From Chloroflexota bacterium (GTDB taxonomy: Bacteria; Chloroflexota; Anaerolineae; UBA2200): DNA of 64,000 nt. The stretch lies in the NCBI GenBank assembly GCA_030607875.1, contig JAUWJD010000009.1, forward strand, positions 29,169 through 93,168. Direction: 5' to 3'. Of the stretch, positions 14,077 to 61,244 are shown piece by piece. The position numbers were made by a program, and so were the translations under genes. The notes under the pieces are model-generated. The model saw nothing but the letters and a program-made list of their open reading frames with translations, was not told the DNA's origin and searched no databases. The stretch's first letter is position 1. The number at the start of each line of letters is the position of its first letter.

Positions 14077-14125
14077 AACAATCCTGAAATACAGGGGACT
14101 GCGTCGACTGCCGAAGGGTCCCGCC

Positions 14126-14178
14126 GCAGGTCTTGGCGAAGACAAGGTCGCAGATCTTGGCGAAGACAAGGTCGCAGG
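14126..14178. repeat. tandem direct repeat, 2 x about 24 bp (TCTTGGCGAAGACAAGGTCGCAG)
   Basis: Two nearly perfect copies lie about 110 nt upstream of the ppdK start. Confidence 0.6.
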
Positions 14179-14284
14179 CGGTCGCCCGTCGCCCGCAGGT
14201 GCCCACGGGGCATGCAGAGCACATGCAGAGCACAAACAGATGATGCACGAAGTAGTAGAATCTATCAAGAAGGAGTGTAGTCAA

Positions 14285-17083
14285 ATGGCGAAAGAGAAGA
14301 AATGGGTCTATCTCTTCAGCGAGGGCAACCGAGACATGCGCAACTTGCTGGGCGGCAAGGGCGCTAACGTAGCAGAGATGACCAATGCGGGTCTACCAGT
14401 ACCGCCTGGTTTTACCATCACCACTGAGGCGTGTAATGAGTATTTCCGCCTGGACGGCAAGTTTCCCGAGGGGATGTGGGAACAGGTGCTTGCTGCGCTG
14501 AAAGTAGTGGAACAGCAGACCGGGAAAAAGTTCGGTGATCCTGAGAATCCCCTGTTGGTCTCGGTGCGGTCCGGTGCCAGGGTCAGTATGCCGGGCATGA
14601 TGGACACCGTGCTCAACGTTGGGCTGAACGAAGACACCCTGCAGGGGATCGCCAAGCTTACCAACAACGAACGCTTTGCGTACGATGCCTATCGGCGGCT
14701 CATCCAGATGTTCGGGAAGATCGTCAAGGAAATCGAGGCCGAGAAGTTCGAGCACATCCTGCATACCTACAAAGAGAAAACGGAGGGCAAGAAAGATACC
14801 GACCTGACCGTTGACCTGCTCAAGGACATTGTCCAGGATTTCAAGGCTCTCTATAAGGAGGAGATCGGGGAAGACTTTCCGACCGAGCCGCTCAAGCAGT
14901 TGCGACAGGCTGCAGAGGCCGTTTTTGACTCCTGGTTTGGCAAACGTGCGGTGGACTATCGCAACTTCCACAAGATCTCCCATGATTGGGGCACAGCGAT
15001 CAATGTGCAGACCATGGTGTACGGCAACATGGGCTTTGACTCCGCTACAGGCGTGGCCTTTACCCGCAATCCGGCCACCGGCGAAAAGAAGCTGTACGGC
15101 GAGTATCTGCTGAACGCCCAGGGCGAGGACGTGGTTGCCGGTGTACGCACTCCGGTCAAGATTGCTCATCTCGGGGATGAGATGCCCGAGGTTTTTGAGC
15201 AGTTTGTCAAGATCACCAAGATGCTCGAAGAGCATTATAGAGATGTGCAGGACGTGGAGTTCACTGTCGAGCGTGGCAAGCTGTGGATGCTGCAGACGCG
15301 CACAGGGAAACGTACTGCCAAGGCCGCGGCCACGATCGCCGTGGACATGGTCCACGAAGGGCTGATCAGCAAAGAGGAAGCAGTGATGCGCGTCACGCCG
15401 GAGCAGGTAGATCAGTTGCTGCATCCGATCTTTGATCCAGAGGCAAAGGCCAAGGCACATGAATCAGGTAGCTACCTGGCCAAGGGATTGAACGCCAGTC
15501 CAGGTGCGGCCACCGGTGTGGCGGTATTTGATGCCACTCGCGCAGAGGAAGTAGCCGAGGGTGGCCAAGACGTCATCCTGGTCCGCCCGGAAACCAGCCC
15601 AGATGACGTGCACGGCATGTTGGCAGCACAAGGTATTCTGACCCAGCACGGTGGCGCGACTTCCCACGCTGCAGTAGTGGCGCGTGGCCTGAACAAGCCT
15701 TGCGTCGCTGGGTGCGAGGCTCTGTCCATCGACCTCGACGCGCGCCAGCTTACCGTGCAGGGCCAGGTGGTCAAAGAGGGCAACGATATCTCTATTGATG
15801 GCACCACAGGCGAAGTCTTTGTCGGCCAGATTCCCACGGTCGAGGTGATGTATAGAGAGCAGACAGAGATGATCGAGCTGCTTGGCTGGGCCGACAAGTT
15901 CCGCCGCCTGGGCGTTTGGACCAATGCCGATTACCCCCGTGATGCAGCGCGTGCGCGCGAGTTCGGCGCGGAGGGCATCGGTCTGTGCCGCACGGAGCAC
16001 ATGTTCTTCGAAGAGGACCGCCGGCCGACGGTGGTGCGCATGGTGCTTTTATCCAAAGAGACCAACAATGTTGAAGACCGCATCCAGAGGCTAGAAGCGG
16101 ACCTAGAGAAAGCCTCAGGGAAAAAGGCGGACGAGATACGCGCCGAGATTGCGGAACTGAAAAAGAATGAGGCTCGGAATGAATACTTCGCAGCCATGGA
16201 TGAACTGCTTCCCTTCCAGCGCGAGGACTTTGAGGGCATCTTTGAGGCCATGGATGGCCTTCCGGTCATCATCCGCCTGATCGATCCTCCGATGCACGAG
16301 TTCCTCCCGTCGCGAGAGGAGTTGATCCGCGAGGTCACCGAGTTGCGATGCCAGGGCGATGATCCCAAGCTTCTGGAAGAAAAAGAAAAGATGTTGCGTA
16401 CTGTGGAGGCCATGGACGAGGTCAACCCCATGCTCGGTCTTCGCGGATGCCGGGCAGGGATCATGTATCGTGGCCTGACCGCCATGCAGGTGCGGGCCAT
16501 ATTCCAGGCAGCTTGTCGCATGGCCCAGAAAGGCGTTGACGTGCATCCAGAAGTGATGATCCCTCTGGTTAGCCACGTCAACGAAATGAAGAACGAGAAG
16601 GTGGCCCTGGAGAAAGTGGCCAAGCAGGTGATGGAGGAAGAGGGCATCGAGGTGGACTACAAGTTTGGCACCATGATCGAAGTGCCCCGTGCTGCCCTCA
16701 CTGCTGACCAGATTGCCGAGTTGGCACAGTTCTTCTCCTTCGGCACCAATGACCTGACGCAGATGACCTACGGCATCTCGCGCGATGATGCAGAGGGCAA
16801 GTTCCTCCTGGCCTATGTGGACAAGAAGATCCTGCCCAGCAACCCCTTCCAGGTGCTGGATCGCGAGGGTGTGGGCAAGCTGATGAAGACAACGGTGGAG
16901 CTTGGGCGCAAGACCCGGCCAGGTATGAGCATCGGCATCTGCGGTGAACATGGTGGTGAGCCGTCGTCCATCGAGTTCTGTCACATGATCGGGCTCGACT
17001 ATGTGTCATGCTCGCCCTACCGCGTGCCTATAGCACGGTTGGCGGCAGCTCAGGCAGCGATCCGAGAGAAGCAGGGCAAATAG
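14285..17083 (+). CDS. ppdK: pyruvate, phosphate dikinase
   Basis: The ORF is 933 aa with a PEP-utilising His domain (GGATSHAAVVARG) and a TIM-barrel PEP/pyruvate domain. An AAGGAG RBS precedes the start. Confidence 0.9.
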   Translation: MAKEKKWVYLFSEGNRDMRNLLGGKGANVAEMTNAGLPVPPGFTITTEACNEYFRLDGKFPEGMWEQVLAALKVVEQQTGKKFGDPENPLLVSVRSGARVSMPGMMDTVLNVGLNEDTLQGIAKLTNNERFAYDAYRRLIQMFGKIVKEIEAEKFEHILHTYKEKTEGKKDTDLTVDLLKDIVQDFKALYKEEIGEDFPTEPLKQLRQAAEAVFDSWFGKRAVDYRNFHKISHDWGTAINVQTMVYGNMGFDSATGVAFTRNPATGEKKLYGEYLLNAQGEDVVAGVRTPVKIAHLGDEMPEVFEQFVKITKMLEEHYRDVQDVEFTVERGKLWMLQTRTGKRTAKAAATIAVDMVHEGLISKEEAVMRVTPEQVDQLLHPIFDPEAKAKAHESGSYLAKGLNASPGAATGVAVFDATRAEEVAEGGQDVILVRPETSPDDVHGMLAAQGILTQHGGATSHAAVVARGLNKPCVAGCEALSIDLDARQLTVQGQVVKEGNDISIDGTTGEVFVGQIPTVEVMYREQTEMIELLGWADKFRRLGVWTNADYPRDAARAREFGAEGIGLCRTEHMFFEEDRRPTVVRMVLLSKETNNVEDRIQRLEADLEKASGKKADEIRAEIAELKKNEARNEYFAAMDELLPFQREDFEGIFEAMDGLPVIIRLIDPPMHEFLPSREELIREVTELRCQGDDPKLLEEKEKMLRTVEAMDEVNPMLGLRGCRAGIMYRGLTAMQVRAIFQAACRMAQKGVDVHPEVMIPLVSHVNEMKNEKVALEKVAKQVMEEEGIEVDYKFGTMIEVPRAALTADQIAELAQFFSFGTNDLTQMTYGISRDDAEGKFLLAYVDKKILPSNPFQVLDREGVGKLMKTTVELGRKTRPGMSIGICGEHGGEPSSIEFCHMIGLDYVSCSPYRVPIARLAAAQAAIREKQGK

Positions 17084-24759: not shown

Positions 24760-25830
24760 GTGCAAATCAAAGAGTTTCTGAAGAAGCTTTCTGAAGCCAG
24801 CGGTGTGTCCGGATACGAGGCCAGCGTGCGCGAACTGGTGCGCGAAGAGTTCTCCCAGTACGCGGACGAGATACAGGTGGACACCATGGGCAGCCTGATC
24901 GCACTGAAGCGCGGCGAGGCAAAGGACGATCTCCCACGTCGCAGCATCATGCTTGCAGGACACATGGATGAAATCGGCCTGCTGGTCACCAAGTTGGAGA
25001 AAGGCTTTTTGCGTTTTGCCACTGTGGGTGGCTTCGACCTGCGGGTTCTGCTGGCACAGCAAGTCGTGGTTCATGGCCGCCGAGATTTGCCAGGCATTAT
25101 CGCCACGCGGCCCCCACATGTGCTCACACGAGAGGACCGAGAGCAGGTCGTGCCCCTGGACAAGCTGTTCATAGACGTGGGGCTGCCAGAAGATGAATTG
25201 AGCCAGTGGGTACGCGTTGGAGACGTGATCACCATACGCCGCCAGTTCACCGAATTGGCAGGCGACCTGGTGTCCGGCAAGGCCTTCGATGACCGCGCAG
25301 CGGTAGCGTGCATTGGCCATTGCCTGCAGCACCTCACCACACTGAAACACGCCTGGGACGTGTACGCCGTTGCCACAGTGCAGGAGGAGGTCGGGCTGAA
25401 AGGGGCCTTAACCAGTACCTTCGGCATCGCGCCCGATATCGGTATTGCCATAGACGTCGGCCATGGTAACATGCTGGGTGTCTCTGAAATGGATACGGTG
25501 AAAGTTGGGGGTGGGCCAGCCATTGGCTTCGGGCCCAACATCCACCCGCTAATGTACTCCCGCCTGGTGGAAACCGCCAAGTCCTATGAGATTGCTCACC
25601 AGACCGATCCCATCCCAGGCAGGAGCGGCACAGATGCCTGGGCTATGCAGGTGACGCGCGAGGGCATCCCCACCGCCCTGATCTCCATACCGCTGCGCTA
25701 CATGCACACCAGCGTCGAGACGCTTTCACTGAAGGATCTGGAGCGCATTGGTCGGCTGCTGGCCCTTTTCATCGCTAATCTGGAAGAGGCGTTTGCTGAA
25801 GAACTTGGCCTGAAGAAAGCCCACACATAG
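24760..25830 (+). CDS. M42 family (TET/FrvX-type) aminopeptidase, paralogue 1
   Basis: Begins at a GTG preceded by a GAGGAGG RBS. Carries the HMDEIG motif and the overall M42 layout. Confidence 0.85.
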   Translation: MQIKEFLKKLSEASGVSGYEASVRELVREEFSQYADEIQVDTMGSLIALKRGEAKDDLPRRSIMLAGHMDEIGLLVTKLEKGFLRFATVGGFDLRVLLAQQVVVHGRRDLPGIIATRPPHVLTREDREQVVPLDKLFIDVGLPEDELSQWVRVGDVITIRRQFTELAGDLVSGKAFDDRAAVACIGHCLQHLTTLKHAWDVYAVATVQEEVGLKGALTSTFGIAPDIGIAIDVGHGNMLGVSEMDTVKVGGGPAIGFGPNIHPLMYSRLVETAKSYEIAHQTDPIPGRSGTDAWAMQVTREGIPTALISIPLRYMHTSVETLSLKDLERIGRLLALFIANLEEAFAEELGLKKAHT

Positions 25831-25913
25831 ATACTGTGAGGGATGTGCGAAGCACCCCCGAAGCGAAAGGGACTGAACTGCGTCGCACATCGAGTGAGTG
25901 GAGGAGGAAGCCA

Positions 25914-26948
25914 TTGTTGTTGAAAGAACTCTCTGAAGCATTCGGTGTATCCGGTCACGAAGACGCAGTTCGGCAGTTGATCCTGGATGCAATCAAAGAC
26001 CGGGTGGATGAATACAACGTTGACGCCTTGGGCAATCTGATTGCCTTGAAAAGGGGCACTGGTCCATCACAGCACAAAGTCATGGTTGCTGCGCACATGG
26101 ATGAAGTGGGCCTGATGATCTTGCACATTGAGAAAGAAGGCTCGTTGCGCTTTCACCCCGTTGGCGGCATTGACCCGCGTGTCCTGCTGGCCAAGAAGGT
26201 ACTGATCGGCGATGACAAGGTGCCGGGCGTGATCGGCATGAAACCCATTCACCTGTTGGAGCCCAAGGAACGCCAACGAGTAGTCAAGGACCAAGAGCTG
26301 CACATCGACATCGGTACGTCGAGCAAGGAAGAAACCGAGAAACTGGTCAAAATCGGCGACTATGCTGCCTTCGACATCTCCTTCCGCGAACTGGGCGGCG
26401 AACTGCGCACAGTGAAGGGCAAGGCTTTTGATGACCGCGTCGGCTGCGCTGTGCTGGTCGAGTTGTTGCGCACGAGTTACCCCGTTGACCTCTACGCTGC
26501 CTTCACCGTGCAGGAGGAAGTCGGGCTGCGTGGAGCCCGAGTGGCGGCCTATTCCATTGCACCTGACTTGGCCTTCGCGCTGGAAGGTACGATCTGCGAT
26601 GACCTGCCGAAGAAGCGGGACATCAGCCCCACAACGAAGCTAGGGGCGGGGCCAGCGATCACCATCATGGACCGCTCCGTCATAGCCGACCGTCGTCTGG
26701 TGCAACTGTTGGTCGATACGGCAGAGAAGAATGGCATCCCCTATCAGTTCAAGCAGCCCGGGCTGGGCGGCACAGACGCAGGAGCCATTCACCTCTCGCG
26801 CGAGGGAGTCCCCTCCGTGGTCGTGTCTGTGCCGGCACGTTACATCCACTCGCCAGCCTGCTTGCTGAGTCTCAACGATTTCGATAACACCGTGCGCTTG
26901 ATGCGCGAGAGCCTGGCCAAAGTGAACGAACTGGATCTGAGCCGTTAG
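25914..26948 (+). CDS. M42 family aminopeptidase, paralogue 2
   Basis: A TTG start follows a GGAGGAGGA RBS (the longer ORF from 25836 lacks an RBS). Carries AAHMDEVG and the M42 layout. Confidence 0.8.
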   Translation: MLLKELSEAFGVSGHEDAVRQLILDAIKDRVDEYNVDALGNLIALKRGTGPSQHKVMVAAHMDEVGLMILHIEKEGSLRFHPVGGIDPRVLLAKKVLIGDDKVPGVIGMKPIHLLEPKERQRVVKDQELHIDIGTSSKEETEKLVKIGDYAAFDISFRELGGELRTVKGKAFDDRVGCAVLVELLRTSYPVDLYAAFTVQEEVGLRGARVAAYSIAPDLAFALEGTICDDLPKKRDISPTTKLGAGPAITIMDRSVIADRRLVQLLVDTAEKNGIPYQFKQPGLGGTDAGAIHLSREGVPSVVVSVPARYIHSPACLLSLNDFDNTVRLMRESLAKVNELDLSR

Positions 26949-26955
26949 CCGCAAT

Positions 26956-26986
26956 AGACCCCAAAGGTTTTTGGAACCTTCGGGGT
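26956..26986 (+). terminator. hairpin after M42 paralogue 2, with no U-tract
   Basis: GACCCCAAAGGTT / GAACCTTCGGGGTC forms a 13-bp stem with one mismatch around a TTTG loop. Confidence 0.4.
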
Positions 26987-26994
26987 CTGGAAAG

Positions 26995-27094
26995 CTACAG
27001 AGTACTGCGCCGATCGCCAAACTTGGATAGCCGTTTGCATGCGGCAATTCGATCAATGAGGTTTAGCCACCTTCGGTGCACAAAGCAGTAGAAC
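26995..27094 (+). promoter_or_regulatory. conserved ~100-nt upstream element, copy 1
   Basis: The 5' block CTACAGAGTACTGCGCCGA..CAAACT, an internal GTTTAGC and the 3' block AAGCAGTAGAAC are shared with the copies at 43815 and 53534. The element ends 14 nt before the start of M42 paralogue 3. Confidence 0.4.
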
Positions 27095-27108
27095 AGGAGG
27101 CATTTCTA

Positions 27109-28116
27109 GTGAAAGAACTCATCAAGGAACTGACCGAAGCGTTCGGCCCATCGGGCAATGAAGACGCCGTACGTGAAATCATCAAGAAACACGTTGCTGA
27201 GCATGTAGACGAGGTACGGGTAGACCCGCTGGGCAACTTGATCACTCTGAAGAAAGGCAAGCCCAAGAGCGGTGTGCAGTCACGCAAGATCATGCTCGCT
27301 GCACACATGGACGAAATCGGCGTGATCATCAGCTACGTGGACGACAAGGGCTTCCTGCGCTTCACTAGAGTTGGTGGAGTGTTTCCGCTTACTTTGTTAG
27401 GAAGCCGGGTGGTCTTTGCCGATGGCAGCACCGGGGTCATCGGACGCGAGAAGCCAGAGAAACGCGACGAGTTTCCGCGCATGGATAAGATGTACATCGA
27501 CGTGGGGGCTGTAGACAAAGAGCACCTGAATAGAAAGGTTGGCGACGTGGCCGCTTTCGTCCGGCCGTTTGTTGACCTGGGACAGCGTCTGACGGCCAAA
27601 GCCTTCGATGACCGCATCGGCTGCGCGATACTGCTGCAGACCGCGTTGGAGCTGAAGACAACACCACACGATGTCTACTTCGTTTTCACTGTGCAGGAAG
27701 AGGTAGGGCTGCGAGGCGCGCTGACCTCCGCTTTTGGCGTGGAGCCAGATGTGGCCATCGCTGTGGACGTCACGCTGACCGGCGATACGCCGGAAGCACA
27801 CCCCATGGCCGTCTCCCTCGGTGCCGGGCCGGCCATCAAGGTCAAAGACCGCGGCATGCTCGCCCACTCCGGCGTGAAGAATTGGATGGCCAATACCGCT
27901 GAGCGTCTGGGGGTGCCCTATCAGTTCGAGGTTCTGGAGGGAGGCACCACCGATGCCATGGCCATCCAGACATCGCGTGCTGGCGTCGCTGCAGGTGTGC
28001 TATCCATCCCCTGCCGCTATGTGCACAGCCCATCGGAGATGGTGGACTATGACGATGTGCAAAACGCGGTGAAACTGCTCGTCGGACTGTTGAGTGGGCC
28101 AGTCGACCTAGGCTGA
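27109..28116 (+). CDS. M42 family aminopeptidase, paralogue 3
   Basis: A GTG start follows an AGGAGG RBS. Carries AAHMDEIG and the M42 layout. Confidence 0.8.
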   Translation: MKELIKELTEAFGPSGNEDAVREIIKKHVAEHVDEVRVDPLGNLITLKKGKPKSGVQSRKIMLAAHMDEIGVIISYVDDKGFLRFTRVGGVFPLTLLGSRVVFADGSTGVIGREKPEKRDEFPRMDKMYIDVGAVDKEHLNRKVGDVAAFVRPFVDLGQRLTAKAFDDRIGCAILLQTALELKTTPHDVYFVFTVQEEVGLRGALTSAFGVEPDVAIAVDVTLTGDTPEAHPMAVSLGAGPAIKVKDRGMLAHSGVKNWMANTAERLGVPYQFEVLEGGTTDAMAIQTSRAGVAAGVLSIPCRYVHSPSEMVDYDDVQNAVKLLVGLLSGPVDLG

Positions 28117-33694: not shown

Positions 33695-34009
33695 ATGCTG
33701 CCGAAGCGGGAGTCATTGAAGGAAGGAGAAAGTATCGATTCGACGGAGAAGCCCTTCAAGGAACTGACCAAAGCCCCAGGCGTGCCTAGCTATGAAAGTG
33801 AGGTTCGGGCGGTCATCCGCCGCCACCTAGAAGCGGTAGCGGCGATTGAGCGCGACCGGTTGGGCAGCATCACTGGCGTAAAGCGCGGCTCAGCGGATTG
33901 GCCGCAAGTAATGCTCGCCGGGCACATGGATGAGGTCGGCTTTGTGGTCAGCCTGATCACCGATGAGGGTTTTATCCGCATAATCGCTTCGGTCAGCTCG
34001 ATAGGCTGA
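33695..34009 (+). pseudogene. M42 aminopeptidase 5' remnant
   Basis: About 290 bp are roughly 90% identical to the leader plus first ~95 codons of the M42 gene at 41908. The ATG is mutated to ATC, and the frame runs into an unrelated sequence and a stop. Confidence 0.6.
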
Positions 34010-35660: not shown

Positions 35661-36872
35661 CTACTTGGCCGACAGGAATTCCAGGAGTTTGTTGGCCACG
35701 GCGTCGGCAAACTCGTCGTCGTTGATGTTGTTGTCCATCTCATACACCGGGATGTCGGGCCGCACATGCTTCTTGATAGCATCGTATAGGGCCTTGTCCG
35801 CCTCCGGCCACCAGAACTCCTTGCCCTCGGCATCCAGCATGGATACGCCCTGCAGCGGCAGGAAAAAGGCCACCGGCGCCGTGGACTTGTTGGCCTTCTC
35901 GGCCAGGATGCGGCCCAGCTCCGCGTTCTCCTCTGGGGTGGTGCGCATCAAGGTTACGTTGGGGTTCCAGTGGTAGAATCGCCGCCCTTTGTATTTCTCC
36001 GGCACCGTTTCCGGGGCCCAAAAGTTGGCCATGTCCAGACAGCCGGGGACGATGACCTGAGGCACTCCCTTCTTGGCAGCTGCATCCAGGCGTGTTGGGC
36101 CCGCTGACAGCACGCCGCCCACCAGCTCGTCCGCCCACTCCGTTGTGGTGATGTCCAGCACCCCGTTGACGTAGCCTTCCTCTATCAAGCTCTCCATAGT
36201 CTGCCCGCCGGTGCCCACTGCGTGGAAGATCAGCACCTCGTAGCCGTGCCTTTCCATCGTCTCGCGGCAGCGATTGACGACGGCAGTGGTGTTGCCAAAC
36301 ATCGAGGCGGCCAGCAAGGGCTTTTCCTCGATCTTGGGCGCTGGCGTCTCCACCATGCCCACCACCGCGCCCACCGCATTAGCGTAGATGCGGGCGCTGA
36401 TACGGTTGACCCCCGCCACGTCCACCACTGATGGAAACATGACCACGTCTTTGGTCCCCACGTAGGCTTTGGTGTCGCCCGAGGCCAGGGTGCTGACCAT
36501 GACTTTGGGGACACCCAGGGGCAGAGCGCGCATGGCAGAAGTGCCAACAGCCGTACCCGCTGAACCGCCCATGGCGATCACGCCGTCAATCTTGCCCTGG
36601 TCGTAGAGCTCCTTGACCACCTTGGCGATGCCTTTGGTCATGACATCCATGGCCAAGCCTCGGTCTGCCTTCTCTTGGAGCTCCTTGAGGCTGACGCCGC
36701 CGGCCTCGGCCACCCTCTTGGAGGGGATGTCGGCTTTGAAGCCGGGCTCGCCCACAACGCTGCTGTCTATGACCAAGGCTGCGTGCCCGCGCTGCTTGAT
36801 CTGCTCCTTGACGAAAGCGAACTCCTTGCCTTTGGTATCCAAGGCCCCAATCACTGCAATAGTCTTCGGCAT
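35661..36872 (-). CDS. UPF0261 family protein (Tm-1 N-terminal-domain homologue)
   Basis: The ORF is 403 aa and begins MPKTIAVIGALDTKGKEFAFVKEQI, the family N-terminal signature. A GGAAAGGAG RBS precedes the start. Confidence 0.8.
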   Translation of the reverse strand: MPKTIAVIGALDTKGKEFAFVKEQIKQRGHAALVIDSSVVGEPGFKADIPSKRVAEAGGVSLKELQEKADRGLAMDVMTKGIAKVVKELYDQGKIDGVIAMGGSAGTAVGTSAMRALPLGVPKVMVSTLASGDTKAYVGTKDVVMFPSVVDVAGVNRISARIYANAVGAVVGMVETPAPKIEEKPLLAASMFGNTTAVVNRCRETMERHGYEVLIFHAVGTGGQTMESLIEEGYVNGVLDITTTEWADELVGGVLSAGPTRLDAAAKKGVPQVIVPGCLDMANFWAPETVPEKYKGRRFYHWNPNVTLMRTTPEENAELGRILAEKANKSTAPVAFFLPLQGVSMLDAEGKEFWWPEADKALYDAIKKHVRPDIPVYEMDNNINDDEFADAVANKLLEFLSAK

Positions 36873-36877
36873 TTGTT

Positions 36878-36975
36878 TTTCTCCTTTCCATAACTAAGAG
36901 TCGTGAATCCCAAACAGCCGCGCTGCGTTTTCGGCAGTTCATCATCTCCTTTCCATGATTAGGAGTCGTGAATGC
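36878..36975. repeat. about 50-bp tandem duplication spanning the amidohydrolase 3' end and UPF0261 RBS junction
   Basis: Copy A (...GCTGTTTGGCATTCACGACTCCTAATCATGGAAAGGAGATGATG) and copy B (...GCTGTTTGGGATTCACGACTCTTAGTTATGGAAAGGAGAAAAACAAATG) are read here on the minus strand. Confidence 0.55.
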
Positions 36976-37876
36976 CAAACAGCCTGGCTGCGTTTCCGCC
37001 CAGGATGTCGGCTTTCTCGACGGCTGAAAGATGCGGATTCTCGCGGACTAGATCGATCATGTAGCGGATACTCACCTGGTTGGCCACGGCCGGATAGTCC
37101 GAGGCAAACAGGATGTGCTGGAAGCCCATCGTCTCGCGGATGCGCTCCACGCGCCATTCCCGCTCGACCAGCCAGGCTACGGCCGCCAGGTCCGCCCACA
37201 CGTTGGGATAGTCCGAACCCAACTGCAGCGCTTCCTCAAACCAGATGCATGGTTCATCCTTGCTGTAGCTGCCCAGGTGGGCCAGGATAATGGGCACTCG
37301 ATGATACTTCTCCAGGACAGGACGCAGCCGTTCCGGGTTGGCGTCCACCGACAGTGCTCGGGCATCCCAGGGAGGAGCCCCACAGCCAGTGTGGATCAGG
37401 ATAACCCGGCCAGTCTCTTCGCACCAGGCGCACACGCGCCGAAAATTCTCACTGTCAGCCGGGTCAAAGAACTGGGCAAAGGGCAGCAGCTTGACGCCCC
37501 GCAGCCCTAGCTGCTCGATCTCGGCCAGCTTCGCCTCTACGTACCCGGCGTCTTTGCACAGGTTCACCGACCCGAGGCCGATGAAGCGGTCGGGATGGGC
37601 GGCCACCATGTCGGCCACGATGCGGCTGGTCACCTTGGGCGTCAGCTTCTGCACCATGACCGCTTCGACTTCTGACCAGAAGACCCGATGGGCTGCCGGA
37701 GTCTTGAAAAAGCGGAAGCGGGTCTGCTGACACAGGTCAGGCCGTTTGATGTCCGCCGGGTCGGTGTCCACCGCCAGCAACACCGCATGGGTGACACCAG
37801 CCCCGTCCATCTCTGCCAGGAGGGCATCGGCACCCATCTTGGGGTGGACGTGGGCATCTACAATCAGTTCATTCAT
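36959..37876 (-). CDS. amidohydrolase-2 family metal-dependent hydrolase (TIM barrel)
   Basis: The ORF is 305 aa with the N-terminal DAHVH metal-binding motif and a C-terminal SDYP. Confidence 0.75.
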   Translation of the reverse strand: MNELIVDAHVHPKMGADALLAEMDGAGVTHAVLLAVDTDPADIKRPDLCQQTRFRFFKTPAAHRVFWSEVEAVMVQKLTPKVTSRIVADMVAAHPDRFIGLGSVNLCKDAGYVEAKLAEIEQLGLRGVKLLPFAQFFDPADSENFRRVCAWCEETGRVILIHTGCGAPPWDARALSVDANPERLRPVLEKYHRVPIILAHLGSYSKDEPCIWFEEALQLGSDYPNVWADLAAVAWLVEREWRVERIRETMGFQHILFASDYPAVANQVSIRYMIDLVRENPHLSAVEKADILGGNAARLFGIHDS

Positions 37877-40974: not shown

Positions 40975-41847
40975 TTCTTTGCCTCCTGCAAAAAGTAGTA
41001 ATTTGACCTTCATGGCCGATGAGGTGTGGCTTTTAGCCATTCTTTTTGTTGCTTAATACCCCCTTTCTAGTATGAAATGTCTCGACTGAGCTCGACAACG
41101 TCTCAGCTACGGCAAACTGGACGATAGTCCCTGGTAAGGTCTGGAGATGAAGCTAGAGGGGGTGTTACCGTCCCCTCTGGCCAGGCAAAAAAACCTTTTC
41201 AGCCCTGCTCCTTCGCCTTGGGGAACTGGGCCAATACCAAATCGAAGAAGTAGGCACCGGCGATAGCACCTAGGATGGGCACACTACAGTAGTGCCCCAG
41301 AGCTCGTTGGGCGGCCCCAGTTCACGGGCGGCAGCTCCTTGGTTTACCCACGCCGCAATGCAACCAGCGGCTTTCTACGAATGTTTTCCTCTATGGATCA
41401 CCCACTCCCGTGCTGCAAGAGCCGATCCTCTTGGAAGCAGATTCCTACGAGGAGATCGCGTTATGCAGCCTGGGCCCATCAAAAGAAAAGACCTTCCAGC
41501 ACTCGAAGTGAAGAAAGGTCTACTCTTGTCCGCCGCAACCCTCCGTTGGGTAGCACAACTTTGAATATCGGCTAGAAAATGGGAACTGTTGCATCTTCCG
41601 TTATTTACATTCTAGCACAAAACTCTGATTTGTCAAGTACAGACTCGGTCCCAAAGTGTGTTGGTGGGTTTTCGTGGCAGGATTGACCACTGCTGGTAGT
41701 TGTGATGGGCGTTACTTGGGTACTATCCCTGGTACCACTCAACCGGTGCGTTGTCGATCAACACAATCTGGAACCGAGTCCAAGTACAAAGCTTCTGCAA
41801 TAGTTTTGGGCTTTCGCCACACTTCGGAAGAAGGAGCAGCTCTGCAT

Positions 41848-41876: not shown

Positions 41877-41907
41877 TGCACCAGCGCTTATTAAGGAAGG
41901 AGAAGGC

Positions 41908-42978
41908 ATGGATTCAACGGAGAAGCTCTTCAAGGAACTGACCAAAGCCCCAGGCGTGCCTGGCTATGAAAGTGAGGTTCGGGCGGTCATCCGCCGCCAT
42001 CTAGAAGCGATAGCCACGATTGAGCGCGACCGGTTGGGCAGCATCATCGGCGTGAAGCGCGGCTCAGAGGATTCGCCGCGAGTGATGCTCGCCGCGCACA
42101 TGGACGAAGTCGGCTTTATGGTCAGCTTGATCACCGACGAGGGATTCATCCGCTTCGTCCCCTTGGGCGGCTGGTGGGACCAGGTCATGCTAGCCCAGCG
42201 TGTGGTGATCAAGACGTCTGCTGGCGACGTATTCGGGCTGCTGGGGGCCAAGCCCCCGCACCTGCTGGAACGGGAAGAGGCCCAGAAGTTGGTGAAGAAA
42301 AAGGACATGTACGTAGATATCGGAGCCACCAGCGCCGACGAAGTGAAGGCGTGCGGGGTGCGGCTGGGTGATCCGATCATTCCCATCTGTCCCTTTACCA
42401 GCTTGAGCCCCGGCCAGACCTACATGGCCAAAGCCTGGGACGATCGCCTGGGGTGCGCGCTCTTCATCCAGGCCATCGAGCGCCTGAAGGGCCAGGCACA
42501 CCCCAATGCGGTCTACGCCGTAGGCACCGTGCAGGAAGAAGTGGGTTGTCGGGGGGCCAAGACCAGCGTGCATAACATCAACCCAGACGTGGCGATCATT
42601 CTGGAAGTGGACATCGCTGGCGACGTCCCCGGCATCAAGCCTGAGGAATCAGCGATAAAGCTCGGCAAGGGGCCTAGCTTGTTGCTGTACGATGCGCGCA
42701 TGATTCCCAACCTTCGGCTGCGCGATTTGGTGATTTCCATAGCCGAGGAGAACGACATCCCGTTGCAGTTCTCGACCATGCGCGGCGGCGCGACAGATGG
42801 ATCAATGATCCACCTGCACAACGAGGGTGTCCCCACTGTGGTGCTCGGCGTCCCCACGCGGCACATTCACAGCCATGCCGGCATCCTGCACCGTGCCGAC
42901 TACGACCACGCGCTCGACCTGCTGGTTAAGCTGATCATGCGCCTGGACGAAGCTACAGTGCGACAGCTCACCGAGTAG
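41908..42978 (+). CDS. M42 family aminopeptidase, paralogue 4
   Basis: The ORF is 356 aa, begins MDSTEKLFKELTKAPGVPGYESEV and carries AAHMDEVG. Confidence 0.85.
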   Translation: MDSTEKLFKELTKAPGVPGYESEVRAVIRRHLEAIATIERDRLGSIIGVKRGSEDSPRVMLAAHMDEVGFMVSLITDEGFIRFVPLGGWWDQVMLAQRVVIKTSAGDVFGLLGAKPPHLLEREEAQKLVKKKDMYVDIGATSADEVKACGVRLGDPIIPICPFTSLSPGQTYMAKAWDDRLGCALFIQAIERLKGQAHPNAVYAVGTVQEEVGCRGAKTSVHNINPDVAIILEVDIAGDVPGIKPEESAIKLGKGPSLLLYDARMIPNLRLRDLVISIAEENDIPLQFSTMRGGATDGSMIHLHNEGVPTVVLGVPTRHIHSHAGILHRADYDHALDLLVKLIMRLDEATVRQLTE

Positions 42979-43562: not shown

Positions 43563-43814
43563 TCTCATCTCAATCTAGCGTCGCGATGTATGCGTCTATC
43601 ACTTCGCCGGTGAAGCAGAATGTTGCATCCTGCCTGCACCAGTCAAATGGTCAGCAGGTGCTCACCACACAGATCATTAACACAGCATACTACCGCCCGC
43701 CGCACGTTTCTTGACGGGTGCTTGACCTTTTGCGGACATGTTTCGTACAGACCGGGGGTCTATGACAGAAACAGCGCATCAGGCGATCCCATTTGTCGGG
43801 CCGATGGCAACGGG

Positions 43815-43914
43815 TTACAGAGTACTGCGCCGAAGGTTGCCAAACTCAGGCAGTCGTTTTCATGTGACAAGCGAGCCGTACGGGTTTAGCAATTGACGCA
43901 TGAAGCAGTAGAAT
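43815..43914 (+). promoter_or_regulatory. conserved ~100-nt upstream element, copy 2
   Basis: TTACAGAGTACTGCGCCGAAGGTTGCCAAACTC...GTTTAGCAATTGACGCATGAAGCAGTAGAAT lies about 38 nt before the GH38 start. Confidence 0.4.
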
Positions 43915-43952
43915 AGCCTCACAGTACGCCGACCTTGACCAGGAGGGGAAAC

Positions 43953-46900
43953 ATGGCCAGGACCTGTATCATTGTCTCACATACGCACTGGGATCGCGAA
44001 TGGTATCAGCCCTATCAGCTCTTTCGTCTGCGGTTGGTCCGTTTGATGGACAGACTCTTGCACATCCTGGACGAAAACCCCAATTATGCCCATTTTATGT
44101 TAGACGGACAAACCATCATTCTGGAAGATTACCTTCAGATTCGGCCAGAGCGAGAAGCAGCCTTGCGCCACTATGTGCACCAAGGACGACTGCAGATCGG
44201 CCCCTGGTATGTTTTGCCTGACGAGTTCCTGGTCAGCGGCGAGGCCATGGTGCGCAATCTGCTGTTCGGCGAGCGCATGGCGCGTGAGTTCGGGGCCAAA
44301 ATGATGGTCGGCTACACTCCAGATCCCTTTGGCCATATTTCACAACTGCCGCAGATCCTGCGCGGCTTTGGCATCGAGACTACAGCGTTGCGCCGTGGCC
44401 TGGATGACCAACCTGCAGAACTGCTTTGGCAGGCTCCCGACGGCAGCACCGTCCTGCTGTGCTATCTCCGCGATGGTTACGACAACGCGGCTCGCCTCCC
44501 CCTGCACGACGAGCAAGCCCTGGCAACCGAAATCGTGCGCCTGTACAACAGCCTGGCTCCTTATGCCGCGACGGACTATGTGCTGCTGATGAACGGCACC
44601 GATCACATGGAGCCTTCACCCGAGTCGCCACAAGCTCTGGCTGCGGCCAGCAGACGGCTGCCGGACATGCGACTGCTGCACGGCACCTTGCCTATGTACG
44701 TGAATGCGGTCAAAGAGAGCCTGCAATTGAGCCAGGGCCCGACTGCTACCACCGCACCAGGGATACTGCAAACCATTCAGGGCGAGCTACGCTCTCCGAA
44801 ACGACATCATCTGCTACCAGGTGTGTTATCCGCTCGTATGTGGATCAAGCAACGCAACAACCGCATCCAGAACCTGCTGGAGAAATGGACAGAGCCGTTT
44901 GCTGCCCTGGCTGCCCTGGAAGGCGCTGGAGCACATGGTCTCAGCAACCCTGACAGCGCCTTTGCCGCAGTCTGGCAAGCATGGACCTACCTGCTGCAAA
45001 ATCATCCTCACGATTCCATCTGTGGATGCAGCGCGGACCAGACACACCGCGAGATGGTCACCCGCTTTGACTGGGCCGAGCAGATTGCCGAGGAAATCAC
45101 GCAGCAGAGCCTGGCCTCCATCGCCAACCAGATCAACACGCAACCACAGAAGTCACAAACGCAAGCTGTGCGAGTTCCACTGGTCGTGTTCAATCCTCTG
45201 ACAGCTACGCGTAGTGACCTTGTGACTACCAGTACCCAGTTGCCGGGCAGCTTGGAAGAGTTTGTTGTGGCAGACGTGGCAGGGCAGATCAAGCCACACC
45301 AGGTTCTGGCGCGAAAAGGGGCCGAGTTCGCCACGCTGCAACTGGGTCGTGATGAGGTCCTGGGACTGGCCACGATGATAGAGATGATTTCAACGCTTGG
45401 ACTATCGGTGCAGGAGATACACATAACCAGCGAAGGAGAAGCTGCCACCATAGACGTGACCTTGGCGGAACACGGCCACACCGATCCAGCGCTCATCGCC
45501 GAGGCACAGCGCCAGATAGAGGCCATCCTGGCGGAAGACACGGTGCAGACCTTCCATGTGCGCGCCCACCAGGCAACGACGGTCGAATTCCTCTTTGTGG
45601 CTGAGGGCGTCCCAGGCTGTGGATACAAGACCTACTTCCTGGTCGAGAGACCCCAGCAGCCCACTCCGGGGGATGACTCTGTAGTGGCGACTTTAGTCGC
45701 TGATCCTGACTCAAGAACGACTCAAGTCGTCACTACAGGCCAGCAGGCAGTCCCGAAGGATGGCTCCGTAGTGGCGACCTTAGTCGCTGATCCTGACTCA
45801 AAAACGACCAATGGGCCTGAAAGCCTGCACATGGAGAACGAGTTCCTGGCCGTGGATATCCATCCACAAGACGGCACGCTCACAATTTTGGACAAGCAGA
45901 CCGGAGCGACCTTCTCCGGCCTGCATCGCTTCGTGGACGGCGGCGATCGGGGAGACGAGTACAACTACTGCCCGGCAGAAGGCGACGAAACCATCTCGGC
46001 ACCTGCTTCGCCACCGGAGATCACCTGGCTGGAGCAAGGGCCGGTGCGCTGGACAATCCAGGTTAGTCAGTGTTACCACTTACCTGCCTCCCTGATCAAA
46101 GACCGCTCTGGACGCAGCAAAGAGTTGGTCGAGGTGCCGCTCACCAGCCAGATCCACCTGGGCTTGGGCGTCCCAAGGCTTGACTTCCGCACGGAGGTTG
46201 ACAACCAGGCACGCGACCACCGACTGCGCGTACACTTTCCGACACCCGTACACGCCAAGTACTGCGAAGCCGAGAGCAGTTTCGACGTCGTGCAGCGCCC
46301 GCTCGGAGTACCTGACGATACTGCAGATTGGGTCGAGCAACCCGTCCCCACGCACCCACAGAAGAGCTTTGTAGACGTCAACGACGGCGCAATCGGCCTT
46401 TTGGTCATAAACCGGGGCCTCCCAGAATACGAGGTACTGCAAGAAAAGGATGGAAGCGCAACCGTCGCCCTGACGCTGTTGCGCTGCGTGGGCTGGCTGT
46501 CACGCGACGACTACCCCTGCCGCAAAGGGCATGCTGGCCCCGCCCTGGAAACCCCAGAGGCGCAGTGCCTGGGGCATCATGTCTTTGAGTATGCGCTGGT
46601 GCCTCACGCCGGAACATGGCAACATGCCTACCCAGAAGCACATGCTTTCAATGCCCCGCTGCGGGCAGTCGTCACCCAGCAGCACGACGGCAGCCTGCCA
46701 CTAACACAGAGCCTCATCTGCCTGCAAGGTGATGGGCTGGTACTGAGCGCCGTCAAAGCGGCGGAAGCGGGGGACGGCCTGATCGTGCGCTTCTACAACG
46801 TCAACAGTGAACTGTCTGTCGCGCACTTGCAGAGCCACACGCCCACGCAGTCAGCTACGCTGGTCAATCTAGCGGAGCAAGAACTGCAGCCATTGAGCAT

Positions 46901-46970
46901 GGATGGTTCAGGTTGGATCACTGTCGAGGTCCAAGGCAAGAAGATCGCCACTGTGAAGTTAACGTTCTAG
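43953..46970 (+). CDS. glycoside hydrolase family 38 alpha-mannosidase
   Basis: Begins ARTCIIVSHTHWDREW, the GH38 N-terminal catalytic signature, and includes the GYTPDPFGH Zn-site region. It is about 1005 aa with an AGGAGGGG RBS. Confidence 0.85.
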   Translation: MARTCIIVSHTHWDREWYQPYQLFRLRLVRLMDRLLHILDENPNYAHFMLDGQTIILEDYLQIRPEREAALRHYVHQGRLQIGPWYVLPDEFLVSGEAMVRNLLFGERMAREFGAKMMVGYTPDPFGHISQLPQILRGFGIETTALRRGLDDQPAELLWQAPDGSTVLLCYLRDGYDNAARLPLHDEQALATEIVRLYNSLAPYAATDYVLLMNGTDHMEPSPESPQALAAASRRLPDMRLLHGTLPMYVNAVKESLQLSQGPTATTAPGILQTIQGELRSPKRHHLLPGVLSARMWIKQRNNRIQNLLEKWTEPFAALAALEGAGAHGLSNPDSAFAAVWQAWTYLLQNHPHDSICGCSADQTHREMVTRFDWAEQIAEEITQQSLASIANQINTQPQKSQTQAVRVPLVVFNPLTATRSDLVTTSTQLPGSLEEFVVADVAGQIKPHQVLARKGAEFATLQLGRDEVLGLATMIEMISTLGLSVQEIHITSEGEAATIDVTLAEHGHTDPALIAEAQRQIEAILAEDTVQTFHVRAHQATTVEFLFVAEGVPGCGYKTYFLVERPQQPTPGDDSVVATLVADPDSRTTQVVTTGQQAVPKDGSVVATLVADPDSKTTNGPESLHMENEFLAVDIHPQDGTLTILDKQTGATFSGLHRFVDGGDRGDEYNYCPAEGDETISAPASPPEITWLEQGPVRWTIQVSQCYHLPASLIKDRSGRSKELVEVPLTSQIHLGLGVPRLDFRTEVDNQARDHRLRVHFPTPVHAKYCEAESSFDVVQRPLGVPDDTADWVEQPVPTHPQKSFVDVNDGAIGLLVINRGLPEYEVLQEKDGSATVALTLLRCVGWLSRDDYPCRKGHAGPALETPEAQCLGHHVFEYALVPHAGTWQHAYPEAHAFNAPLRAVVTQQHDGSLPLTQSLICLQGDGLVLSAVKAAEAGDGLIVRFYNVNSELSVAHLQSHTPTQSATLVNLAEQELQPLSMDGSGWITVEVQGKKIATVKLTF
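45677..45808. repeat. in-frame 87-bp tandem duplication (2 copies) with internal palindromic arms inside GH38
   Basis: CTCTGTAGTGGCGACTTTAGTCGCTGATCCTGACTCAAGAACGAC and CTCCGTAGTGGCGACCTTAGTCGCTGATCCTGACTCAAAAACGAC lie 87 nt apart. The inverted repeat CTGTAGTGGCGAC / GTCGTCACTACAG lies within the first copy. The encoded sequence is SVVATLVADPDS(R/K)TT twice. Confidence 0.6.
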
Positions 46971-53533: not shown

Positions 53534-53654
53534 CTACACAGTACTGCGCCGAAGGTCGCTAAACTCGAACAGCACTTTCATATCGTTCATCCCGCTTGAC
53601 GGGACGATGATTCGGTGAAATGCGTTTAGCAATCCATGCACGAAGCAGTAGGCA
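53534..53654 (+). promoter_or_regulatory. conserved ~100-nt upstream element, copy 3 (with about 20-nt insertion)
   Basis: CTACACAGTACTGCGCCGAAGGTCGCTAAACTC...GTTTAGCAATCCATGCACGAAGCAGTAGGCA lies about 20 nt before the GT2 start. Confidence 0.4.
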
Positions 53655-60838: not shown

Positions 60839-61244
60839 TAAACGTAATCAGCCTCCATAAAGCGTAGCGCTACTATACCACATTTTGCATGAAATGCATA
60901 GCTTCATCGCGTACACAGGGCAGGGCAATCGCATTTGGATTCTGGAGCTCCAAAATACGGCTGTGATCCGTCAGAAGCGGGCACTTTGCTGGCCTGGACA
61001 GGCCATACCCGGCTCCCCGATTCCTATCACCAGCAAGAAAGGGCACGAAATGAGTCGAGACAACACGGCAAAGCTTCCGAAAATCATTGTAGCAGGCCGT
61101 TCTCGAGTTCAAACGCGACTGCTCTGCCGGACCACAATACGTGCTTGCTTCCAGCAGGACTGTGCAGTAGAATTGAATGCAGAAATTGGCTAACACGTCC
61201 CGAGGGCCGGCTGCGCTCGGAGAACGAATGGGAGGAACCACACC

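Follow-up and report, generated by a model that had tools for sequence, protein, structure and literature searches.

Described bacterial miniature inverted-repeat transposable elements (MITEs) are 70-300 base pairs (bp) long, have terminal inverted repeats (TIRs) of 15-30 bp, carry a terminal TA with duplication of the target, occur in long and short forms, and contain stem-loops (PMC2229807; PMC3733652; PMC2649163). The Correia elements of Neisseria (CREE or NEMIS) are non-coding repeats of ~100 and ~155 nucleotides (nt) with inverted-repeat ends and a core (PMC2649163; PMC2229807). RUP of Streptococcus pneumoniae, the MITE of IS630-Spn1, is ~107 bp in length, is intergenic, lies at TA, and is supposedly moved in trans by an IS630-family transposase (PMC2229807). 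REPINs are ~100-nt hairpin doublets with GTAG on the outside that are dispersed in spacers and are often associated with RayT (PMC3733652). Here, we describe a dispersed repeat in a 64,000-nt stretch of a Chloroflexota bacterium contig (JAUWJD010000009.1; the whole stretch is hereafter the window), one copy of which, upstream of a gene for a family GH38 glycoside hydrolase, had been flagged in an earlier note as a conserved upstream element. We consider the repeat very likely to be a MITE, that is, a non-coding, non-autonomous, TA-inserting element of ~91 nt with variants of 86-190 nt that harbor extra modules.

Correia elements, which the repeat resembles most in how it works, insert at TA with duplication and are sometimes found with CA, as is also the case here, where two copies have CA. 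They further exist in long and short forms through an internal segment, are located in most copies 5' of genes, and give transcripts that fold into long hairpins. Unlike Correia elements, the repeat described here is from the phylum Chloroflexota, shares no sequence similarity with them, has outermost 9 nt that are poor inverted repeats, and has no evident IHF site; its gene-orientation bias (7 of 7; see below) is also not a described CREE property. RUP is tied to its insertion sequence (IS) by TIR identity with IS630-Spn1, whereas no parent IS was found for the present element and its tips are asymmetric. One copy abuts a RayT pseudogene, in keeping with REPINs, but the halves of the element are not autonomous GC-rich palindromes and the G of its GTAG comes from the target. 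Furthermore, REPs are found mainly downstream of genes, between convergent or co-directional open reading frames (ORFs) (PMC3733652), whereas the copies here precede gene starts.

Copies in the Window

The earlier note had described three ~100-nt copies on the + strand ahead of unrelated genes, and this was borne out by alignment of the copies end to end (refined limits, including the flanking TA dinucleotides, 26996-27090, 43816-43910, and 53535-53650) and by an exact 13-mer. Within the window, this 13-mer (AGTACTGCGCCGA) has three perfect matches and none with a single mismatch, whereas ~0.002 exact matches are expected by arithmetic in 128 kb. Since exact 13-mers common to the three copies exceed chance expectation, the repeat is real. 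The sequence GAAGTAGTAGAAT upstream of ppdK, which had been noted as related, proved to be the 3' tip of a fourth, variant copy (14092-14255). In contrast, CAGTAGAAT before the cupin gene (61165-61173), previously placed with the same element, has no wider similarity in nhmmer searches and is hence not a copy. A search of both window strands with nhmmer identified no core copies beyond those below, and a weak match to the 3' tip at 40987 is not a copy.

Copy A: 26996-27090, + strand; TA, 91-nt element (26998-27088), TA; delimited by nhmmer and alignment
Copy B (the flagged copy): 43816-43910, + strand; TA (43816-17), 91-nt element (43818-43908), TA (43909-10); nhmmer E-value 1e-20
Copy C: 53535-53650, + strand; TA, 112-nt element (53537-53648), TA
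Copy D (variant): 14090-14257, + strand; TA (14090-91), 164-nt element (14092-14255), TA (14256-57)

Presence, Absence, and Movement of the Element

Comparison of orthologous loci in relatives revealed that the spacer between two M42 peptidase genes (copy A) and the spacer between fur and GH38 (copy B) differ by exactly the element plus one TA. The empty M42-M42 site was identified in locus L007, where the flanking orthologs share 90% and 88% amino-acid identity with those in the window. This site reads ...GGGGTCTGTGGACACCTGGAACAGGAGGCATT, the window with 26998-27090 removed reads ...GGGGTCTGGAAAGCTAGAACAGGAGGCATT, and pairwise alignment of the two is gapless at the junction. In the fur-GH38 spacer, three relatives (L005, L007, and L008) lack the element and read GGTTAGAATA(G/A)C, whereas the window reads GGTTA-[CAGAG...GCAG]-TAGAATAGC, that is, GGTTA[element]TAGAATA. 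A 91%-identical relative (L006) has an insertion at the identical fur-GH38 position. At both empty sites MAFFT misplaced the gaps because hairpins in the flanks resemble the element, and the alignments were settled pairwise after removal of the element.

Additional observations indicate that the element has moved. In locus L009, a young copy is nested within an older, diverged copy at GTT-TA...TA-G, in the GTTTAG of the older copy. The copy shared by L012 and L025 is 100% identical to the copy in L027 with different flanks, indicating recent movement. Across the family, 14 of 18 listed rows (13 of 16 distinct loci) have TA before the element, and two others have CA. On the 3' side, every copy has TA, among them the six that were not chosen through the search pattern. 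The context of the flanks is usually YTA-element-TAG(A). A single TA (or TG) is present at the two empty sites and the one nested site, as compared to TA-element-TA when filled. This constitutes target-site duplication, of only 2 bp, so that duplication-free insertion beside a TA is also compatible with the data.

Anatomy and Internal Modules

The element ranges from 86 to 190 nt, with most copies at 88-97 nt and a typical length of ~91 nt, and contains no ORFs. Its tips are conserved across the aligned copies as CAGAGTACTGC(G/A) at the 5' end and (G/A)TGCACGAAGCAG at the 3' end, which may also be given as CAGAGTACTGCG and GCACGAAGCAG, respectively. Inside the tips are subterminal inverted repeats of 17-29 nt with GCTAAAC and GTTTAGC that surround a short variable center, and the GC(Y)AAAC/GTTTAGC pairing is maintained in 14 of 14 copies. 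In one subtype, GCG-TCAAT-TGCTAAAC is the reverse complement of GTTTAGCA-ATTGA-CGC, while another has CCGAAGGTTGCTAAAC together with GTTTAGCAACCTTCGG; perfect 23-bp stems are predicted in some copies. The arms of copy B are as follows.

5' arm of copy B: 43818-43845, + strand; tip CAGAGTACTGCG, followed by the inverted-repeat part ...TTGCCAAAC
3' arm of copy B: 43882-43908, + strand; GTTTAGCAATTGACGC, followed by the tip ATGAAGCAG

Because the arms are mutual reverse complements, the "5' block," "internal GTTTAGC," and "3' block" distinguished in the earlier note correspond to two inverted-repeat arms and their tips. The blocks themselves had been quoted correctly except in copy A, which has AAAGCAGTAG in place of GAAGCAGTAG. 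Likewise, the distance of 14-40 nt given from the 3' block to the ribosome-binding site does not extend to copy A, which ends 4 nt before its AGGAGG.

An insertion of ~20 nt previously suspected in copy C is real and corresponds to a separate small hairpin repeat, which occurs once in the window.

Small hairpin repeat ATCGTTCATCCCGCTTGACGGGACGAT: 53582-53608, + strand; in the middle of copy C

The same unit (ATCGTTCATCCCGCTTGACGGGAC, also written (ATC)GTTCATCCCGCTTGACGGGAC) is found inside copy C and the copies of L013 and L016, as a tandem array of at least five units in an L013 spacer (2560-2670; the element-oriented strand is the reverse complement of the stored locus), and beside RayT-like pseudogenes in a related metagenome-assembled genome (MAG; L030 455-480 and 17600-17625). 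Copy D has kept its tips (CAGGGGACTGCG... and ...GATGCACGAAGTAG), while its GCTAAAC/GTTTAGC core has been replaced by other modules. A 24-nt unit, (G/A)TCTTGGCGAAGACAAGGTCGCAG, is duplicated in tandem and in perfect register at 14130-14177, and the 3' arm of copy D contains, in inverted orientation and at 98% identity, 46 nt of a module internal to the copies in L006 and L010. These two copies occupy separate loci and have a common insert of ~90 nt in the 5' arm. The ~46-nt module, (GTGCTCTGCAT)x2-RCCCCGTGGGCACCTGCGGGCGAC, occurs in either orientation at 14188-14233 of the window, at 1475-1530 of L006, and in L010, and is also present in L030 (1324-1358, 9897-9924, 17634-17661, and 18153-18216), adjacent to each of the RayT-like pseudogenes of MAG GCA_964478075.1. 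The module itself appears to be an independent repeat. Evidently, several small repeat families coexist in the genomes of this uncultured Chloroflexota lineage and are inserted into each other.

Genomic Neighborhood and Orientation

The copies in the window are spaced 10-17 kb apart among housekeeping genes, and the identities of the neighboring genes (glycyl-tRNA synthetase, PPDK, the M42 pair, Fur, GH38, PMT_2, and GT2) were confirmed by Pfam. Copy A lies between two M42 peptidase genes and ends 4 nt before the AGGAGG of the downstream gene (GTG start at 27109). Copy B is flanked by fur (43568-43113, - strand) and GH38 (43953-46970, + strand), copy C by a tRNA gene (53427-53355, - strand) and a PMT_2 gene (- strand) upstream and a GT2 glycosyltransferase gene downstream, and copy D by the gene for glycyl-tRNA synthetase upstream and ppdK (ATG at 14285) downstream. 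The best homologs of GH38 are from Chloroflexota/Anaerolineae metagenome bins; the closest full-length homolog is 72% identical and one partial homolog is 91% identical.

The orientation of the element was evaluated for co-directional gene pairs in which the genes had been verified as real. In 7 of 7 such pairs (copies A and D and those in L013, L018, L020, L021, and L026), the + strand of the element is the coding strand (one-sided binomial, 0.008). Three spacers are divergent (those of copy B, copy C, and the copy in L009), and in each of these the element has its 3' end toward the nearer gene; no copy was found between convergent gene pairs among those checked.

Distribution of the Family

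A scan of metagenome contigs with a pattern based on the 3' half of the element returned 19 loci, comprising 14 true copies and five chance matches. Two more were recovered by nhmmer, namely a second, diverged copy in L016 and, in L009, a partial host copy, which brings the family, with the four copies in the window, to ~20. The neighboring genes are functionally unrelated and encode PPDK, M42 peptidase, GH38, GT2, S-adenosylmethionine (AdoMet) synthetase, a Xer-type recombinase, an ABC transporter, and 3-hydroxyacyl-CoA dehydrogenase; GT2- and Rho-like ORFs near the copies in L009 and L016 were recognized by eye only. An exact pattern based on the 5' half yielded four hits among 185,579 species-representative genomes, all of which are attributable to chance and none of which has the 3' block. 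Three scans of viral contigs returned one chance-like match (L028 and L029, without a 3' end) and two empty results. Since it has no sequence relationship to the described families tested and no copy in species-representative genomes, the repeat is a new family, of the established MITE class, in an uncultured Chloroflexota lineage.

Interpretation as a MITE and Proposed Mobilization

The interpretation of the element as a MITE follows from the dispersed family, its presence or absence at two orthologous loci, nesting, identical copies at different loci, TA flanks, inverted-repeat arms, and unrelated neighbors, to which the small size, the lack of coding capacity, and the target duplication can be added. 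We propose that integration takes place at TA, usually in the context YTAG(A), and would leave the element with a TA at either end. On this view, each of the four window copies is an independent insertion into a spacer, before ppdK, an M42 gene, GH38, and the GT2 gene, respectively, and their similarity stems from descent by transposition rather than a common mode of regulation. No transposase gene with matching ends was found either in the window or in 39 fetched loci, which leads us to infer mobilization in trans, presumably by a transposase encoded elsewhere in the genome.

IS630 elements prefer CTAG as a target and duplicate the TA. The YTA and TAG flanks of most copies are a TA duplication within a CTAG-like context, as expected of a MITE derived from IS630/Tc1-mariner, and these flanks and the CTAG-like target suggest that the mobilizing enzyme may be of this type.

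Several observations weigh against the MITE interpretation. Beyond the missing transposase, the two ends, although conserved in their outermost 9 nt, agree with each other at just 4 of these 9 positions (CAGAGTACT against CTGCTTCGT, the latter as reverse complement), which is unusual for a cut-and-paste element. The target seems asymmetric, as 11 of 18 listed rows have TAGA after the element and the left-hand side lacks a mirror image of it. A simple DDE MITE does not predict co-orientation with genes in 7 of 7 cases, to which the asymmetry of the target and of the tips may be related. The absence of a true copy from species-representative genomes indicates that the family is narrow. Lastly, a double change in L021 (GCAT/ATGC to CCAT/ATGG) keeps the arms complementary and is the only hint of selection on the hairpin.

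The GCTAAAC and GTTTAGC sequences also resemble the core sites of integron attC. This candidate was rejected, as these sequences lie ~20 nt inside the element, the copies are 10-17 kb apart, and the bare element is found at TA.

Probable Effect of the Insertion on the GH38 Promoter

The element-free relatives have a promoter-like site upstream of GH38 that comprises TTGT(C/G)T, a spacing of 17 nt, and TAGAAT at the aligned position. The corresponding features in the window are as follows.

TTGTCG: 43793-43798, + strand; probable ancestral -35 of GH38, 17 nt before the TA at 43816
TTAGCA-17-TAGAAT: 43886-43914, + strand; putative hybrid promoter, with TTAGCA within the 3' arm of the element

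The earlier note had proposed TAGAAT as a -10 hexamer associated with the element. This very probably applies to GH38, and possibly to ppdK, but not to the element as such: TAGAAT consists of the flanking TA and the native GAAT and is therefore target DNA outside of the element, and a -10-like hexamer is missing after most copies. TAGAAT is also not enriched in the window (14 occurrences versus 10.7 expected). For GH38, TAGAAT at 43909-43914 is very probably the -10 hexamer because element-free orthologous loci have GGTTAGAATA at the corresponding position. The insertion adds 93 bases between the old -35 (TTGTCG) and TAGAAT, and TTAGCA-17-TAGAAT is the only sigma-70-like match in the region upstream of GH38 (0.3 expected). 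The same scan gave no sigma-70-like match for copies A, C, and D. A perfect TTGACA-17-TATAAT was detected at 53470-53442 (- strand), just upstream of the tRNA gene at 53427-53355, which indicates that the organism employs consensus promoters of the sigma-70 type and makes the sigma-70 consensus scan meaningful for it.

Judging from the arrangement of these motifs, the element would have landed in the old -10 box of GH38 and displaced the old -35, for which its own TTAGCA, at 17 bp, would substitute. Copy B thus probably rewired the promoter of GH38. Read-through from an upstream promoter would, in addition, place a long hairpin in the 5' leader of the transcript. Correia elements provide a precedent: their "Black" promoter combines a -35 near the end of the element with a -10 that is completed by the flank (PMC2649163), and their "Snyder" promoter combines a native -35 with the first six bases of the element (PMC2649163; PMC2229807). 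The TTAGCA-17-TA/GAAT arrangement at GH38 is that of the Black promoter.

Two further observations concern this locus. A block between fur and GH38 (43703-43745; GCCGCACGTTTCTTGACGGGTGCTTGACCTTTTGCGGAC) is kept in L005 and L007, in which GH38 is only 69-72% identical. The block has two TTGAC motifs and probably serves either as the promoter/operator of fur or as a shared control region. Within the GH38 ORF, at 45653-45808, an 87-nt unit is present in tandem (69 nt aligned, 84% identity) with a GTAG-tagged hairpin, GTAGTGGCGACTTTAGTCGC. This tandem accounts for a 43-amino-acid in-frame insertion in GH38 (DDSVVATLVADPDSRTT...DGSVVATLVADPDSKTT) that is missing from its closest homolog (P0001), and it looks like an intragenic REP-like insertion.

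Alternative Explanations

The position of the copies allows for readings in which the element is conserved for what it does to adjacent genes. A structured cis-regulatory RNA, such as a riboswitch or a protein-binding leader in the 5' untranslated regions of a regulon, would account for a + strand that can fold into a long hairpin with loop inserts of variable length, for its location on the coding strand just before ribosome-binding sites, and for the few compensatory changes in the stem. Yet the + strand folds better than the - strand in just 8 of 16 copies (mean difference of 0.1 kcal/mol), and RNAalifold retains only 14 pairs, all within the inverted repeats, with a covariation term of -0.19 kcal/mol, which is negligible. 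Compensatory changes between subtypes fit inverted repeats from different source elements and do not discriminate between the RNA and DNA readings. Rfam returned only a tRNA (whole window at the gathering threshold; 43700-44000 to E = 10), consistent with the earlier note, which had recognized no named cis-regulatory RNA. The downstream genes share no common function, their orthologs in relatives lack the element, copies nest within one another, and identical copies reside at different loci. These findings make an RNA leader very improbable. A shared transcription-factor site or promoter architecture, in which a palindromic AGTACT would serve as the operator of co-regulated genes, draws on a nearly invariant 5' block, 70-100 nt upstream of genes, in which this palindrome occurs (CAGTACTG in copy C). 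It is the whole 91-nt unit with its TA flanks that travels, however, and not merely a ~16-bp site; orthologous promoters lack the block, copy A ends 4 nt before a Shine-Dalgarno sequence and leaves no room for a promoter, and copies are also found between genes of one operon-like run. We regard an operator as extremely improbable, and the earlier proposal of a shared activator or repressor site in the 5' block also falters on the unrelated neighbors, the self-nesting, and the mutual inverted repetition of the 5' and 3' blocks. Strand-symmetric folding, negligible covariation, empty sites, and an incoherent gene set together exclude a riboswitch-like leader or a regulon operator as the cause of conservation. 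A third functional reading, which is compatible with the MITE interpretation, is that the element is of mobile origin and that retained copies were co-opted as portable expression modules through an outward -35 that pairs with a flanking TA-N3-T or through a leader hairpin that alters the stability of the mRNA. Such co-option would account for their position shortly ahead of start codons in a single orientation. A start codon lies 19-43 nt past the end of each of the four window copies, on the same strand, all 7 co-directional pairs agree with the element in orientation, the 3' end is toward the nearer gene in three divergent spacers, and TTAGCA-17-TAGAAT is the sole promoter-like site left to GH38. 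Subtypes with a short arm have TTAGCA exactly 17 nt from the flanking TA; Correia elements act in exactly this manner (PMC2649163), and the effect of ERIC on mRNA depends on orientation (PMC2229807). Nonetheless, the promoter-like match is present in copy B only, about half of the copies have a 3' arm that is 3 nt longer and shifts the spacing to 20 nt, and spacers are short, such that closeness to start codons is expected regardless. The sample is also small. The arms, being inverted repeats, place a -35-like hexamer at both ends, which provides no explanation for the orientation bias. We view co-option as rather unlikely.

Other readings accept mobility but differ in its mechanism. The element could be an HUH/Y1 single-strand mobile element, either a REPIN-like doublet or a palindrome derived from IS200/IS605, moved by a RayT-like tyrosine transposase. 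Insertion would then occur 3' of NCTA without duplication, and the shared TA would be the end at which the left and right cleavage sites match. Most copies have outer ends of the form (C/T)TAC...GTAG, and GTAG is the tag of RAYT-associated REPs, where it is on the outside of head-to-head doublets (PMC3733652). The conserved asymmetric tips and the asymmetric target (TAGA on one side only) fit this mechanism, as does the match in orientation with flanking genes (7 of 7), since single-strand transposition could yield such a bias. Moreover, in L011 a RayT-like gene (NCBIfam NF047646, E-value 5.7e-9, below the family cut-off; Pfam gave no match) starts 17 nt from the 5' tip of the element, and the internal module of copy D and the copies of L006 and L010 is beside every RayT-like pseudogene in 28 kb of MAG GCA_964478075.1. 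However, that RayT gene is truncated, with HLY as its HUH motif, and the 28 kb that surround the RayT genes in the MAG yielded no core copies. Intact relatives (L038 and L039) are flanked by another, classical GTAG REPIN, GTAGGGG(A/C)GAGGCATTCC...GGAATGCCTC (also written GTAGGGGAGAGGCATTCC...GGAATGCCTC), which is also inserted in RayT pseudogenes. As intact RayT genes carry a different flanking repeat, this RayT clade already has its own REPIN, and we downgraded the lead accordingly. In addition, each half of the element forms a local stem of at most 3-5 bp rather than a GC-rich palindrome of 20-40 bp, with pairing between the halves, and the G of GTAG is target DNA (TTAG) in both reconstructed empty sites. 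On balance, we consider RayT-type mobility unlikely. Another view is that of an orientation-locked MITE, which integrates or survives in one direction alone, its 3' end toward the start of the next gene, or alternatively of a portable promoter or leader cassette. It is prompted by ends that are conserved yet different and by the asymmetry of the target (YTA/GA), and the lock could stem from a directional mechanism, single-strand (HUH-type) or other, that is linked with transcription or replication; we rate this view as quite unlikely.

Other Repeats and Features

The RayT genes described above form a classical REPtron, in which intact genes are flanked by a GTAG REPIN of the form GTAGGGG(A/C)(G/A)AGGCATTCC...GGAATGCCT(C/T)GCCC. 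This REPIN is also found in frame within degenerate RayT genes, to which it adds ~35 amino acids (VGARHSQEVSSSML...NALPL), and it does not occur in the window.

GTAG REPIN of the RayT clade: L039 90-200 and 885-981; L038 597-700; L030 10166-10275 and 10640-10750; L011 ~1000-1115

Elsewhere in the window, a 65-nt unit (GTCTTCGGCATTTGTTTTTCTCCTTTCCATAACTAAGAGTCGTGAATCCCAAACAGCCGCGCTGC) occurs twice in tandem at 36862-36991, with 82% identity, at the boundary between ORFs of the - strand. At least five M42-family peptidase paralogs are present in 18 kb, comprising three in tandem at 24760-28116 and one each at 33719-33998 and 41893-42172, and these are seen as diverged direct repeats around an HMDE motif. 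Cumulative GC skew rises from 0 to 28 kb, peaks at ~26000-28000, and then falls, partly tracking a switch in gene strand at 28.2 kb; the peak could reflect this switch alone or a replication terminus.

Significance

The repeat comes from an uncultured, Anaerolineae-like lineage of Chloroflexota in which mobile repeats have hardly been described. For annotation, the value of these findings is that the repeat is no longer mistaken for a riboswitch or regulon signal and that four insertion sites and several small repeat families are now marked. The element is of an ordinary kind, and no long-standing question is opened by it; the points worth pursuing are the replacement of the GH38 promoter and the orientation bias. 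The promoter of GH38, a gene that is mannosylglycerate-hydrolase-like, would represent a clean natural case of a MITE within a -10 box that supplies a substitute -35, and the orientation bias, if it proves to be genome-wide, would merit mechanistic attention.

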